From an uncultured virus (IMG/VR IMGVR_UViG_3300006467_000197) (taxonomy: Duplodnaviria > Heunggongvirae > Uroviricota > Caudoviricetes): a stretch of 64,000 nt of DNA. A program made the translations under genes and the position numbers. Below, piece by piece: positions 3,359-44,611 of this stretch; within the stretch, counting starts at the first letter, position 1, and the number at the start of each line of letters is the position of its first letter. The stretch lies in IMG/VR virus record IMGVR_UViG_3300006467_000197; one strand, given 5' to 3'. The notes under the pieces were generated by a model. The model searched no databases. It saw only the letters and a list, made by a program, of their open reading frames with translations, and had not been told where the DNA came from.

Positions 3359-3387
3359 AATATATTGCGTGTACGAAACGAAGTCAA
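3359..3387 (-). promoter_or_regulatory. Sigma70-like promoter TTGACT-17-TATATT
   Basis: Near-consensus hexamers with 17-nt spacer in intergenic gap. Confidence 0.7.
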
Positions 3388-7615: not shown

Positions 7616-7686
7616 GGCTGCACCTATTTATTCAAAAATCCGAAAAACTATTATGCTTGAACTGGCTTTCGCTGTAAAGCGAAATC

Positions 7687-22200: not shown

Positions 22201-22302
22201 GAAAAACCCCGCAAGACGGACGTTAATTTCCATCTTGCGGGGTTCAGCCAGAAGCGCAGGGTAGGTAGGGGGAGTGGCAGAACGCTTCTGACGTATTTCA
22301 GT
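22201..22302 (-). ncRNA. Candidate small RNA: hairpin with C-rich loop plus terminator
   Basis: CAGAAGCG/CGCTTCTG stem around TTCTGCCACTCCCCCTACCTACCCTG; 12-bp terminator stem with U-tract. Confidence 0.45.
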
Positions 22303-30392: not shown

Positions 30393-30947
30393 ATGTCAAA
30401 ATCTATGAAAATTAAATCAACCTCACCGTTCGGCAAAAGCTTCAAAGCAGAACCGAAGCTGAAGACAATGGCACGAACAGAAGAACGTGCGAACTCTGAA
30501 ATGGCTGCGGAGATTGATGCAATTATTCAAGGTACACAGTCAGCGTTCAAGAAAAAGTTTCCGCACGGCTGGTGTACTGTTGGTGCTCGCAAAAGCATCG
30601 GCTCAATCGTCATAAACATTCGTGGCGGCATCATCGGAGACGCTTCACTTCTGCCCAGCCGTATCGCTGACAATGATCCTGCATATTTTCATTTGTCTGT
30701 TATGCCAATCAAAGGCGGTCAGTTTGAAATGGAGCACAGGGTAGGCTTCGGAATTAAACTGAAGCCCGATCCGGGTACGCACTACGCAATGAAGACACAC
30801 AAAGTAAAACTGCGGAAAGTGAAGGGCGACTCTGAAAAAATAGTAACCGCTTTCGAGAAACACTTGGACAAACTCAAGAAGGCTGTGAAAGACAATCAGG
30901 AAAACTTCTATCGCCGCGAAGATTACCCGGACAAATATTTCAAATAA
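30393..30947 (+). CDS. Hypothetical protein (lone plus-strand gene, possible virion-internal)
   Basis: GGAG RBS; own terminator. Confidence 0.8.
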   Translation: MSKSMKIKSTSPFGKSFKAEPKLKTMARTEERANSEMAAEIDAIIQGTQSAFKKKFPHGWCTVGARKSIGSIVINIRGGIIGDASLLPSRIADNDPAYFHLSVMPIKGGQFEMEHRVGFGIKLKPDPGTHYAMKTHKVKLRKVKGDSEKIVTAFEKHLDKLKKAVKDNQENFYRREDYPDKYFK

Positions 30948-30965
30948 GTCCAACCATCAGACAAA

Positions 30966-31003
30966 CAAAAACCCCGCCTAGCAATCGCCGGGCGGGGTTT
31001 CTC
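30966..31003. terminator. Bidirectional intrinsic terminator
   Basis: AAACCCCGCC/GGCGGGGTTT stem between convergent units. Confidence 0.85.
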
Positions 31004-31160
31004 TTTGGAGTCTACTGGTCTTACAGGACGAAACAAGGATTATCCCCATGCTGCCAGCAGCGTCCAGCTTTCAGGTTTCACATCTTCGCCTCCATAGGTT
31101 TGCAGTAGTTTCGTTTCACCGTCTTTTAGTCAACCCGGAACAACGATGGGACCGGGAACC
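30966..31160 (-). ncRNA. Candidate structured RNA of about 190 nt
   Basis: TTGACA-17-TAATAT promoter (31164-31192), no long ORF, crossing complementary segments, terminator. Confidence 0.5.
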
Positions 31161-31166
31161 ATTATA

Positions 31167-31370
31167 TTAACCGGGTGCCGATTGGCTGTCAACCGCCATG
31201 ATTTTGCGGCGCTCTACAAACCGGCCAGCAACACCAACTGCATCTGGTGAAAAGTACCAGCAGTGTCTTTTTTCAAATTCGGTAAACCACACCCAGCCGT
31301 CTTTTGTGAGTGTAGGAAAGAACGCAAACACCTTGGACCACTCACCATTTTTTATATACAACTTTGGCAT
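31167..31370 (-). CDS. Hypothetical protein
   Basis: GGACTGAATAA-ATG start; W..FAFFP...G.VW motif. Confidence 0.75.
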   Translation of the reverse strand: MPKLYIKNGEWSKVFAFFPTLTKDGWVWFTEFEKRHCWYFSPDAVGVAGRFVERRKIMAVDSQSAPG

Positions 31371-31374
31371 TTAT

Positions 31375-31515
31375 TCAGTCCTTCAAAAAGATAGCACTTA
31401 CGACTTCGCTAAGGGTGTTGCGCTTACCGCCAATTGGAATGACTGTAGTAGCGAACGCGGAAGCTGCGCAGATGACCAAAAGGATAAGGGCGGTAATCAT
31501 TATTTCAAAGAACAT
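31375..31515 (-). CDS. Small membrane protein (46 aa)
   Basis: Not in ORF track; GGAG RBS; MFFEIMITALILLVICAASAF... Confidence 0.6.
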   Translation of the reverse strand: MFFEIMITALILLVICAASAFATTVIPIGGKRNTLSEVVSAIFLKD

Positions 31516-31528
31516 CTAATTGCTCCTA

Positions 31529-31563
31529 TAAAAAAAGGGAGTGCAGTTTCCCGCACTCCCTTT
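31529..31563. terminator. Intrinsic terminator
   Basis: AAAGGGAGTGC/GCACTCCCTTT stem with U-tract on minus strand. Confidence 0.8.
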
Positions 31564-31569
31564 GAGGCA

Positions 31570-31941
31570 TCACCCTGCCTCGGCTGATTCCGACTCCGGT
31601 GTTTTTTCAGGCCGGTAGTCGAAGACTTTGAACTCGCCGCGCCGTGCATCGAAGAAGTTACCTTCAGCATCGACACTGAACAGGTACGGCAATTTTTCAT
31701 AACCTCCGCCGGGACGCTTGCCCATCATGCAGCTCGTGGAGCCGTCGAAGTGCGACCCTACGAAGCCAAGCGTATCATACACGTCAAGCTGTCCTGCAGT
31801 ATGGTTGTCGATGCGTTCGAACTTGCGAGCGCCCGTGATAGCTGCGAACTGTGACTCGCCGTAGTAATAGACGCCGGAGCCAACGCTTGATGTCTGTGCA
31901 AGGTAGCGCTTGCTGAGGTCTTTTGCTGGTTCTACTCCCAT
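31570..31941 (-). CDS. Hypothetical protein
   Basis: GGGAGA RBS; own promoter and terminator. Confidence 0.8.
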   Translation of the reverse strand: MGVEPAKDLSKRYLAQTSSVGSGVYYYGESQFAAITGARKFERIDNHTAGQLDVYDTLGFVGSHFDGSTSCMMGKRPGGGYEKLPYLFSVDAEGNFFDARRGEFKVFDYRPEKTPESESAEAG

Positions 31942-38528: not shown

Positions 38529-38557
38529 ATAATACCTTGAGACTACGCCTACGTCAA
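38529..38557 (-). promoter_or_regulatory. Sigma70-like promoter TTGACG-17-TATTAT
   Basis: Near-consensus hexamers in intergenic gap. Confidence 0.75.
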
Positions 38558-40067: not shown

Positions 40068-40633
40068 ACTTTTCCCTCAATATTCAAATTCATCTGTGTA
40101 TTGACAGGAGACTTGCGATACTTGTCCTGCAAGCGGCTTTGATCGAAATGGCCGTGGCCGAGCGAAGTACGTAACAGGAAGGAAATAGCAAGTGCAACAG
40201 ATACTGAATAAAAATAGCTACAACCCGCGCCATCTAATCCACGGTTCCTTATGCGCGATGTGTAGGTTACAATACGAACTTTACTTCCGTTTCTGGTACG
40301 ATTGGTAATATCCTTTCGAGTGAAAAATTCACACTCAGGAAAAATCCAATCCATAGTCTCGAACATAAACGAAGTTGTCGAACTCTGGAACAGTAAAGCG
40401 GTGATTGCTTCAGGGAAGTCGCAACCGATTGCCATTTGAAAATTACGTAAGAGAGTCATTTCAGTATCATACATTGCTGCATGATACTCTTCGATGCACG
40501 TGTACTTGCGATTTGCTACCGCACTCTCTGAAGTCAGCGCATCACTTTCGAACTCTAAAAGGTCGTCAGGGTTAAACAGAAAAACTTTCTCATTCGAGAA
40601 CTCTGAATAATTTTTCATACGGAACGGCGTCAT
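40064..40633 (-). CDS. Hypothetical protein
   Basis: Coupled ORF with GGAG RBS. Confidence 0.75.
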   Translation of the reverse strand: MTPFRMKNYSEFSNEKVFLFNPDDLLEFESDALTSESAVANRKYTCIEEYHAAMYDTEMTLLRNFQMAIGCDFPEAITALLFQSSTTSFMFETMDWIFPECEFFTRKDITNRTRNGSKVRIVTYTSRIRNRGLDGAGCSYFYSVSVALAISFLLRTSLGHGHFDQSRLQDKYRKSPVNTQMNLNIEGKV

Positions 40634-40881
40634 AGCGAATCTCCAACTTGTGCTTGCTGTGCTGCCAGAACGGTTTCCGGAGTTGCGCGTTTTTGAAGAT
40701 GCAACGTGTCCACATTGAAAGTCCCTACCGGGCCTTTGTCTGGACTATCCAAGCGACAGCAAGAGTAACCTACGACTTTCCCAAACTCCGCTTGTTTGAT
40801 AATTACCAAATCAATCCGACCGCGCTGTTTCGCATCGAGAGCTTGAAATCGTACAACGTCACCTTTTGAAAATTTCGGCAT
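40630..40881 (-). CDS. Small SH3-like beta protein
   Basis: GGAGG RBS before MPKFSKGDVV. Confidence 0.7.
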   Translation of the reverse strand: MPKFSKGDVVRFQALDAKQRGRIDLVIIKQAEFGKVVGYSCCRLDSPDKGPVGTFNVDTLHLQKRATPETVLAAQQAQVGDSL

Positions 40882-40906
40882 AGTAACCTCCTGAACAGGT
40901 AACTCA

Positions 40907-40935
40907 ATTATGCCGTTGTTTACTCTATGCGTCAA
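40907..40935 (-). promoter_or_regulatory. Sigma70-like promoter TTGACG-17-CATAAT
   Basis: Near-consensus hexamers. Confidence 0.75.
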
Positions 40936-40956
40936 TGTTAGTGGTCTAAGTACGCG

Positions 40957-40985
40957 AAACCCCGCTGATCCGAAGACCAGCGGGG
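40957..40985 (-). terminator. Terminator after nrdJ
   Basis: CCCCGCTGGTC-TTCG-GATCAGCGGGG-TTT (UUCG tetraloop). Confidence 0.8.
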
Positions 40986-41040
40986 CCGCATACAACACCC
41001 TATCCGCCCGAGTCATCCTCGGGACAATATTCAATTAGTA

Positions 41041-43590: not shown

Positions 43591-43744
43591 TGTTGTTATC
43601 TCCGTTTACTGAATATTGCGACCATAGAATTCTCGGGCCTGCAAGAGTCATATTGGGAGTTTTACTGGCTAGCAGCTGAGACGAATTTTACCATGGTTTG
43701 AGAATCTTTTTCTGTAAGGCCTGAATAAATCAGAGTGCAGAACA

Positions 43745-43826
43745 AAGAAAAGCCCCTGACGCACGGGAGGACACGTCAGGGGCTTCATGGTTTGCAGGCT
43801 TCGCCGTCTCAGAGATAACAGCGACC
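43745..43826 (-). ncRNA. Candidate small RNA with CCUCCC loop
   Basis: TTGACA-17-TATATT promoter (43830-43858), one hairpin, then 12-bp terminator with loop TGTCCTCCCGTG. Confidence 0.55.
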
Positions 43827-43854
43827 TACAATATAGACCCGCTGCAAATTTATG

Positions 43855-44268
43855 TCAAGCAGTGGTTCGCCGCCGCTTTTTCGGAGCCATGGCAGAGGTC
43901 TTTTTGGCTTTCCCCGCCTTCGGTTTTGCTTCTGCTTCGTGAGAGATTTTCTTCTTCGGTTTATTCAGGCCAGTATTCGGCAGAGCGGAGACAATCGTAG
44001 CGCGTTTGTCGCTTGGGTTTGTATAGACAAACTGCACCAGTTCAGTCTGCATGTTGTCCCGCTTCTCACCATTGACGTATATTTCAAATTCACCGGTCTT
44101 GAAACAATACGTTCCTTCGACTTTGGCTTTGGGAGGGATTCGGAACAGGTCTTTTACTTCTGGAACAAACCCTGCGAATGACATTCGATAGCCTTGCAAG
44201 GAAACTGAAGCGGCGTATCCAATCAGGACGCCGCAGATACGAACTTCATTCTGCTTGCTTTTATTCAT
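43855..44268 (-). CDS. Hypothetical protein with basic tail
   Basis: Start moved to MNKSKQ (AGGA RBS). Confidence 0.75.
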   Translation of the reverse strand: MNKSKQNEVRICGVLIGYAASVSLQGYRMSFAGFVPEVKDLFRIPPKAKVEGTYCFKTGEFEIYVNGEKRDNMQTELVQFVYTNPSDKRATIVSALPNTGLNKPKKKISHEAEAKPKAGKAKKTSAMAPKKRRRTTA

Positions 44269-44278
44269 GATAGTAATC

Positions 44279-44611
44279 CTATTCTTCGTCTTCAAACTCG
44301 TCGAGGTGTGATCCCATATAAGACAACAGATTGCCTGCATGGGAAAGCGCATATTCTACCGGACCGTTTATACCTTCAAGCATGTAGAAGGGAACGGCTT
44401 GTTCATTCTCTTCAACAACTTCTTCCTCCCCGGTCTCTTCGTTCTTTTCAGTTACTTCTTCTTTTGAAAAAATAACGAAAGCGATACCAGTGACAGTCTG
44501 ATTCGAGGCAACAGTCTCTTCAACTGTTTGAACAAGGAAGCTTAGCACATCGGCATGTTGTACTTTTGCCTTTTCTAGCGTCTCTCTAAAGTGTCGAACA
44601 TTATCGCTCAT
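44279..44611 (-). CDS. Small acidic protein
   Basis: GGAGA RBS; Glu-rich. Confidence 0.75.
   Translation of the reverse strand: MSDNVRHFRETLEKAKVQHADVLSFLVQTVEETVASNQTVTGIAFVIFSKEEVTEKNEETGEEEVVEENEQAVPFYMLEGINGPVEYALSHAGNLLSYMGSHLDEFEDEE

Follow-up and report, generated by a model that had tools for sequence, protein, structure and literature searches.

Gene Neighborhood of the ORF-Poor Gap

The window analyzed here is the whole stretch of 64,000 nucleotides (64 kb) from an uncultured virus. The sequence looks like a portion of a large phage of the T4-style or jumbo type, and nearly all of its genes lie on the minus strand. Among 20 ORFs scanned against PHROG and Pfam, we identified a UvsX/RecA-like recombinase, both topoisomerase II subunits, a methyltransferase, and a B12-dependent ribonucleotide reductase. 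The closest phages in the GenBank collection were Dickeya and Erwinia jumbo phages, with only ~31-34% amino-acid identity in the recombinase. A blastn search with 1.2 kb around the stretch under study gave no nucleotide match in phages. On the minus strand, the order is a 123-aa gene, a terminator, a 46-aa ORF, a 67-aa gene, an ORF-poor gap of ~165 nt, and a second terminator. The features are as follows:

ends at 31570, minus strand: 123-aa gene; the next terminator begins 6 nt later
31534..31563, minus strand: strong upstream terminator of 13 pairs, which closes the preceding operon 18 nt before the 46-aa ORF
31375..31515, minus strand: 46-aa hydrophobic ORF with a GGAG ribosome site, which opens the small unit
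31167..31370, minus strand: 67-aa gene directly upstream of the gap, matching no known family
30966..31157, minus strand: predicted RNA of ~190 nt; alternatively, the 3′UTR of the 67-aa gene from 31166 downstream
30393..30947, plus strand: convergent 184-aa gene of PHROG 21515 (function not known), ending ~20 nt before the terminator

Only 18 nt separate the upstream terminator (31563..31534) from the ribosome site and ATG of the 46-aa ORF, and no convincing promoter was found between them. The 46-aa and 67-aa ORFs would therefore depend on read-through of this terminator or on an unrecognized promoter.

In a word-indexed protein collection, the sole match of the 67-aa protein was itself. An exhaustive HMMER search returned one true relative, P0004, a protein of 58 aa with 48% identity (E 5.6e-10). 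Since this one homologue is 58 aa long, the 67-aa gene is not a truncated longer gene. The other seven HMMER matches were short stretches (3 to 11 each) in long repeat-containing proteins of 457 to 1017 aa, and the W- and F-rich core of the 67-aa protein may resemble a repeat unit. The 184-aa protein has one close relative, P0003 (59% identity), which carries ~53 additional residues near the N-terminus that are absent from the product of the window's gene. Its distant homologues (28-35%) were found in Yersinia, Erwinia, and Serratia jumbo phages and in a Paraglaciecola phage. In all, the relatives of the locus proteins were limited to P0003, P0004, and P0012. The contigs encoding P0003 and P0004 both measure 44,702 nt and are most likely one contig, which suggests conserved synteny in one relative phage; P0012 is encoded on a contig of 3,609 nt.

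Bidirectional Terminator and Length of the Gap

The gap is closed by an intrinsic terminator (31002..30967) that stands in inverted repeat I1. It consists of a G+C-rich hairpin followed by TTTTTGTTTGT on the minus strand and by TTTCTCTTT on the plus strand. Because an A-run and a T-run flank the hairpin, one on each side, the terminator can be used in both directions. It sits between two convergent genes, the 184-aa gene ending at 30947 on the plus strand and the 67-aa gene ending at 31167 on the minus strand, and it is common to the former and to the minus-strand unit. The predicted RNA would share this Rho-independent terminator, with its U-tail, with the mRNA.

The stop codon of the 67-aa gene is separated from the terminator by ~165 nt. 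None of the other four strong minus-strand terminators in the window is so far from its stop codon, their distances being ~6, 55, 67, and 68 nt. According to PMC10914365, 58.2% of the 3′UTRs in Pseudomonas phages are at most 100 nt long, and both 3′UTRs of variable length and bidirectional terminators between convergent genes are normal in phage transcriptomes. The bidirectional intrinsic terminators described there for phiKZ (six) and PAK_P3 (one) are likewise single hairpins flanked by an A-run and a T-run between convergent genes (PMC10914365). The terminator at our locus differs from them in nothing of note and is an ordinary part of the finding.

Promoter-Like Site and Promoters of the Phage

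A first-pass annotation of this DNA had described a promoter pointing into an ORF-poor gap that ends at a strong terminator. All of these elements were found where it had placed them, the promoter as follows:

31164..31192, minus strand: sigma-70-type promoter-like site, TTGACA-17-TAATAT, matching 10/12 consensus positions

The -35 hexamer TTGACA (31192..31187) is perfect, the 17-nt spacer is optimal, and the -10 hexamer is TAATAT (31169..31164). Transcription from this site is predicted to start near 31157 on the minus strand. The TAA at which the 67-aa gene stops falls within the -10 hexamer, and 90% of the site is inside that gene.

We counted 16 sites with at least 10/12 consensus positions in the window, compared to 15.4 in shuffles. 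At a threshold of at least 9/12, three counts gave 22 against 19.9, 30 against 24.6, and 30 against 24.4 expected. Outside a crude gene model, we found 6 of the 16 strong sites, where 1.92 were expected (P 0.009); one of these six (6049, plus strand) is counted only because the gene model omits an ORF there. In the other five (3387, 7678, 38557, 40935, and 43858), the spacer is always 17 nt, and the sites are directed into downstream genes. The number of strong sites is thus at the chance level, but their placement is non-random, from which it follows that the phage evidently uses host-type, sigma-70 promoters of the TTGACA-17 form with 17-nt spacers. The sequence suggests that the region with four intergenic promoters is transcribed by the host polymerase. 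Promoters of the sigma-70 type and a G+C content of 46-47% are consistent with a gammaproteobacterial host, though they are no proof of one. The site at 31192 may belong to the gene-internal class, with nine other members, that chance explains, and we judge the likelihood that it fires to be about even. When the seven sites with 17-nt spacers were compared, no extended conserved motif was seen beyond the two hexamers.

The sites at 3359-3387, 7650-7678, 38529-38557, and 40907-40935 are intergenic sigma-70-type promoters that lie a short way upstream of genes on the minus strand. The promoter at 40935 is preceded by a terminator and followed by GGAGG and ATG (40880), and the one at 38557 is followed by AGGA and ATG. 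A 134-aa TTG ORF (40630-41034) overlaps the terminator and promoter of the former site. The real gene within these coordinates is most likely much shorter, with the ATG at 40880, behind GGAGG, as its start codon.

A Second Promoter-Terminator Unit

A second unit consisting of a promoter, a short RNA, and a terminator was noticed at 43858..43740 on the minus strand, before the B12-type ribonucleotide reductase gene. Its promoter (43858..43830, TTGACA-17-TATATT) matches 11/12 positions, which makes it the best sigma-70-like site in the window and the only other perfect TTGACA-17 site. The -35 hexamer overlaps the stop codon of the upstream ORF 43855..44352. The ~80 nt after the promoter hold a 5′ hairpin and the strongest terminator of the window (43786..43749, 16 pairs), and the unit folds with a z of -4.77. 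In Rfam, it gave only a sub-threshold match (ar14, 23.3 bits against 58.8). Since the unit lies ~150 nt upstream of the ribonucleotide reductase gene (start 43590), it may be a leader or attenuator, or an sRNA.

Many short, promoter-proximal terminated RNAs are reported in 5′UTRs of phiKZ, for example a ~71-nt species before PHIKZ221 (PMC10914365). They likewise consist of a promoter and, within 80 to 250 nt, a strong terminator, and 43858..43740 fits this layout closely. The phiKZ RNAs are short and abundant. The unit under study differs from them in having no same-strand gene downstream before the convergent gene, and for this reason it cannot be a leader or attenuator.

A motif of 15-16 nt, CTGCAAACC(T)ATGRAG, is common to the unit under study and to 43858..43740. 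Its local alignment score was reached by 116/3000 and 110/3000 random window segments (~3.8%).

Crossing Complementary Segments and Predicted Fold

The first-pass annotation had also read the transcript of the gap as a pseudoknot-type structured or switching RNA. The three pairs of complementary segments on which it relied are present on the minus strand, in the crossing order that it gave:

31090..31114, minus strand: 5′ set of complementary segments, ACGAAAC (31114..31108), CTACTG (31108..31103), and TGGAG (31094..31090)
31006..31034, minus strand: 3′ set of complementary segments, GTTTCGT (31034..31028), CAGTAG (31017..31012), and CTCCA (31010..31006)

The segments (7, 6, and 5 nt) follow each other in the same order in both sets, and their pairs would cross if formed together. 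As in an H-type pseudoknot, the 5′ arms of helices 1 and 2 are followed by the 3′ arms of helices 1 and 2; here, loop 1 is zero, loop 2 is ~68 nt, and a third crossing helix is added. ACGAAAC and CTACTG overlap by one base, and the linker between them is zero. Because the first two 5′ segments share this base, all three helices together would be strained, as judged by geometric reasoning.

Triples of complementary segments were searched for with a detector that required a total of at least 18 nt and confined each set to 32 nt. In 2000 dinucleotide shuffles of the 160-nt body, a crossing triple of this size was found in 4, a nested triple of the same size in 7, and either kind in 11; a perfect helix of 7 nt occurred in 671/2000. 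In the real window, crossing triples were present in 3/798 half-overlapping tiles of 160 nt, the other two being inside genes for 756 and 402 aa, and nested triples in 5/798 tiles. The triple looks rare in shuffles, but the site was picked from 64 kb. The crossing pattern stands at the background rate of the window and does not exceed the genomic background. The main lesson of the finding is that, in a window of 64 kb, short same-order complementarities amount to background noise, and they are not to be read as pseudoknots without comparative support.

The predicted nested fold contains two domains before the terminator:

31074..31153, minus strand: predicted nested domain 1, a long irregular hairpin with pair probabilities of 0.65 to 0.99
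31006..31066, minus strand: predicted nested domain 2, a CUGCUGG/CCAGUAG stem with pair probabilities of ~1.0

In the nested ensemble, the pairing probabilities of the three crossing helices were 0.000, 0.003, and 0.001. The CAGTAG and CTCCA arms are taken, at a probability of ~1.0, by a nearer partner in the conventional stem-loop of domain 2 (CUGCUGG/CCAGUAG). Forcing any single crossing helix costs 1.7 to 4.2 kcal/mol relative to the MFE. In a kissing-loop check, the longest perfect helix among MFE-unpaired bases was only 3 nt, a length that reflects the weak MFE pairs covering the segments and has no bearing on the crossing helices. The energetic and statistical tests give no support to the likeness to an H-type pseudoknot. 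The whole 192 nt folds with an MFE of -62.6 kcal/mol (z -1.74; 10/200 shuffles fold as well), a value that is due to the terminator alone. The 155-nt body without the terminator gave a z of +0.65, and 144/200 shuffles folded equally well or better. Folding of the plus strand was no better (z -1.54).

The smaller structural elements named in the first-pass annotation fared unequally. Its 5′ CCCGG/CCGGG pair exists, with a 13-nt loop. The GCTGC/GCAGC pair is also present, but with only 2 nt between the arms it can form at most 4 bp and a tetraloop. The several GAAA loops are weaker than described, since no predicted fold closes a GAAA run with a stable stem. The first-pass annotation could not match the RNA to a tRNA, tmRNA, or known ribozyme, and neither could our scans: ARAGORN found no tRNA or tmRNA genes in the whole window, and the Rfam scan that had been proposed as a check (4227 models, whole 64 kb) gave no match to any family at gathering thresholds. 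A permissive Rfam scan of 30850-31300 returned 17 matches, all below gathering scores and mostly centered on the terminator, the best being rnk_pseudo, which scored 25.4 bits where 55 were required. Even at E up to 10, this region gave no match to a ribozyme or riboswitch in Rfam.

Searches for Homologues and Targets

Scans of viral, metagenome, and genome contigs guided by the 184-aa protein, the 67-aa protein, and two-sequence alignments yielded no usable homologous DNA. The single locus that they returned was rejected as an unrelated high-G+C stretch. An exact 20-mer scan of viral contigs gave no matches. With blastn, the region had no match in E. coli genomes and gave only terminator fragments in phages. 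Five records with relatives of the neighboring methyltransferase (32-41% identity) were considered and set aside, as none of them encodes the 184-aa protein. A tblastn search of phages with the 184-aa protein found homologues of at most 35% identity only, which is too distant for a comparison of intergenic RNA. The search of the window for paralogues of the region returned nothing beyond chance matches of 9-12 nt.

The longest exact complementarity of the predicted RNA to other transcript senses in the window was 11 nt, found four times, where by our own estimate about five are expected. The best duplex with the start regions of 94 model genes was equaled by 79/100 shuffles.

Likeliest Reading of the Locus and Its Alternatives

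We propose that the stretch would be the untranslated 3′ end of a small minus-strand unit made up of the 46-aa ORF and the 67-aa gene. A single bidirectional intrinsic terminator would close this unit and stop the convergent 184-aa gene. The RNA would fold as ordinary nested hairpins, with two irregular stem-loops followed by the terminator, and the same-order complementary segments would be chance matches that form no pseudoknot or switch. An ordinary 3′UTR with a shared bidirectional terminator is the likeliest reading of the locus, and we give it an even chance. The gene layout and the terminator are as described above, the gap holds no credible ORF, and no structural signal rises above the background. 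We infer that the ~165 nt serve only for spacing and as the transcript's 3′ end, and that the promoter-like site is either weak or incidental. Also in favor of this reading are the missing Rfam family, the chance-level count of promoter-like sites, and the lack of a paralogue or target signal within the window. Counting against a plain 3′UTR are the long distance from the stop codon to the terminator, the perfect -35 hexamer, the optimal spacer, the convincing promoters of like form elsewhere in the phage, the unit at 43858 with its shared motif, and the 4/2000 shuffles with a crossing triple.

Some of the same observations favor a possible, though less probable, alternative, in which the stretch encodes a stand-alone 3′UTR-type sRNA of ~190 nt, made by the host sigma-70 polymerase from a promoter at the end of an ORF and acting by base pairing with host or phage mRNAs. 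The TTGACA-17-TAATAT site is correctly placed on the correct strand, the phage evidently uses sigma-70-type promoters with 17-nt spacers, and the 3′UTR is unusually long for the window. A second unit of the same layout lies at 43858..43740 (z -4.77), and a motif of 15-16 nt is common to both. Features that would fit an Hfq-type chaperone are an exposed single-stranded stretch (e.g., CUGCAAACCUAUGGAG), a AAGAGAAAC run, and the terminator with its U-tail; they are, however, short and were noted only post hoc. Against the sRNA, promoter-like sites of equal quality occur at the chance rate, and the one at 31192 is inside a gene. The score of the shared motif is reached by ~3.8% of random segments, no target signal was seen within the window, and neither an Rfam family nor a homologue was found. 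As for the claims of the first-pass annotation, its transcription unit is plausible in view of the sigma-70 promoters elsewhere and the second unit, but the structural part is not supported.

The sRNA would have parallels among phages. In virulent phages, few sRNAs are reported and their functions are unclear, as stated in PMC8244752 and PMC10914365. Short UTR-derived RNAs are described in phiKZ and PAK_P3, where ncRNA1 (~210 nt) and ncRNA2 (~120 nt) of PAK_P3 and 3′UTR_PHIKZ298 of phiKZ are 3′UTR-derived ncRNA candidates (PMC10914365). They were detected by RNA-seq and Northern blot (PMC10914365). The PAK_P3 RNAs have no start site of their own because they arise by processing (PMC10914365). 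The stretch under study resembles these RNAs in being a short ORF-free stretch of 100 to 210 nt from a stop codon to an intrinsic terminator in a virulent or jumbo phage. It differs from those of PAK_P3 in that the promoter-like site suggests a primary transcript. No sequence similarity to the 3′UTR RNAs of PAK_P3 and phiKZ was found by blastn against phages.

In bacteria, DapZ and MicL are 3′UTR sRNAs with ORF-internal promoters. The locus is like them in that the promoter-like site is in the 3′ end of the upstream coding sequence, the terminator of the mRNA is shared, and a U-rich tail follows a G+C-rich hairpin. It has no Rfam match; membership in a family cannot be claimed, and the likeness is one of layout alone. 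In layout, the locus fits known kinds, and neither its sequence nor its structure places it in a described family. Were the RNA produced and active in trans, it would extend the still short list of regulatory RNAs in virulent and jumbo phages.

A bolder form of the sRNA proposal, which we regard as unlikely, joins the two units. This isolated jumbo-type phage would make at least two short primary RNAs, of ~190 nt (31157..30966) and ~80 nt (43823..43740), from perfect TTGACA-17 promoters that overlap upstream stop codons, and the exposed motif CUGCAAACC(U)AUGRAG would serve as their common seed against host or phage mRNA. If this were true, the two would form a small family of phage regulatory RNAs made by the host polymerase early in infection. 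In practical terms, the finding offers two candidate units, each running from promoter to terminator, that can be tested cheaply in a phage otherwise without annotation.

The remaining alternatives depend on the coding potential and the structure of the gap. No minus-strand ORF of at least 25 aa is wholly contained between 31166 and the terminator, and only one ORF in the gap has a ribosome site:

31040..31081, minus strand: GTG mini-ORF of 13 codons, separated by a spacer of 7 nt from an upstream GGAGG (31093..31089)

It is improbable, in our judgment, that the stretch is a tiny mRNA, from which a peptide of 13 residues (GTG at 31081, stop at 31040) would be translated under the control of the domain 1 hairpin masking the ribosome site. 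The GGAGG is 7 nt before the GTG, and predicted domain 1 does pair across both, burying them. However, the ORF has only 13 codons, its codon score (0.064 per codon) is below the gene mean (0.188, sd 0.083), and by our own rough estimate GGAGG with a start codon arises by chance in a few percent of such gaps. Two other ORFs were rejected. A 40-aa plus-strand ORF (31048..31170) has a codon score of -0.151 per codon and no candidate in the protein index, not even a self-match, which indicates that the source record does not include it among the called genes. A 23-aa ATG ORF (31049..30978) lacks a ribosome site, extends into the terminator, and has a codon score of -0.285 per codon.

We consider it very improbable that the three crossing helices form a pseudoknot, or a switch with the nested fold, possibly a ribozyme, as had first been proposed. 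The three segment pairs do follow the H-type order, the triple is rare in shuffles of the 160 nt (4/2000), and any one helix can be forced at only 1.7 to 4.2 kcal/mol. An equal pattern is nevertheless present in 3/798 window tiles, two of them coding, the helix pairing probabilities are at most 0.003, and the z of the body is +0.65. In addition, the zero linker between the first two 5′ segments strains the geometry, Rfam offers no ribozyme or riboswitch even at E up to 10, and there is no downstream gene for a switch to control.

Equally remote is the reading of the gap as what is left of a gene, decayed or truncated, that followed the 67-aa gene: two minus-strand frames of the gap have codon scores (+0.074 and +0.056 per codon) that exceed those of 95% of out-of-frame tiles and fall short of those of 95% of in-frame tiles, but the three minus-strand frames contain 2, 2, and 5 stops in 54 codons, the one homologue of the 67-aa protein (58 aa) indicates that its gene is not truncated, the 40-aa plus-strand ORF has no relative, and intermediate scores in two frames at once fit base composition better. 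These mildly positive scores are read as the base composition of the sense strand, and not as an old reading frame.

Terminator Stems Shared Within the Window

Three minus-strand terminators of the window (22205-22244, 30970-30999, and 40958-40985) have a common stem sequence, AAACCCCGC...GCGGGG. The 8-mer AACCCCGC occurs 5 times in the window compared to 1.45 expected, a number that 0/100 shuffles reach. It is found in both arms of the terminators at 22205-22244 and 30970-30999 and in one arm of that at 40958-40985.
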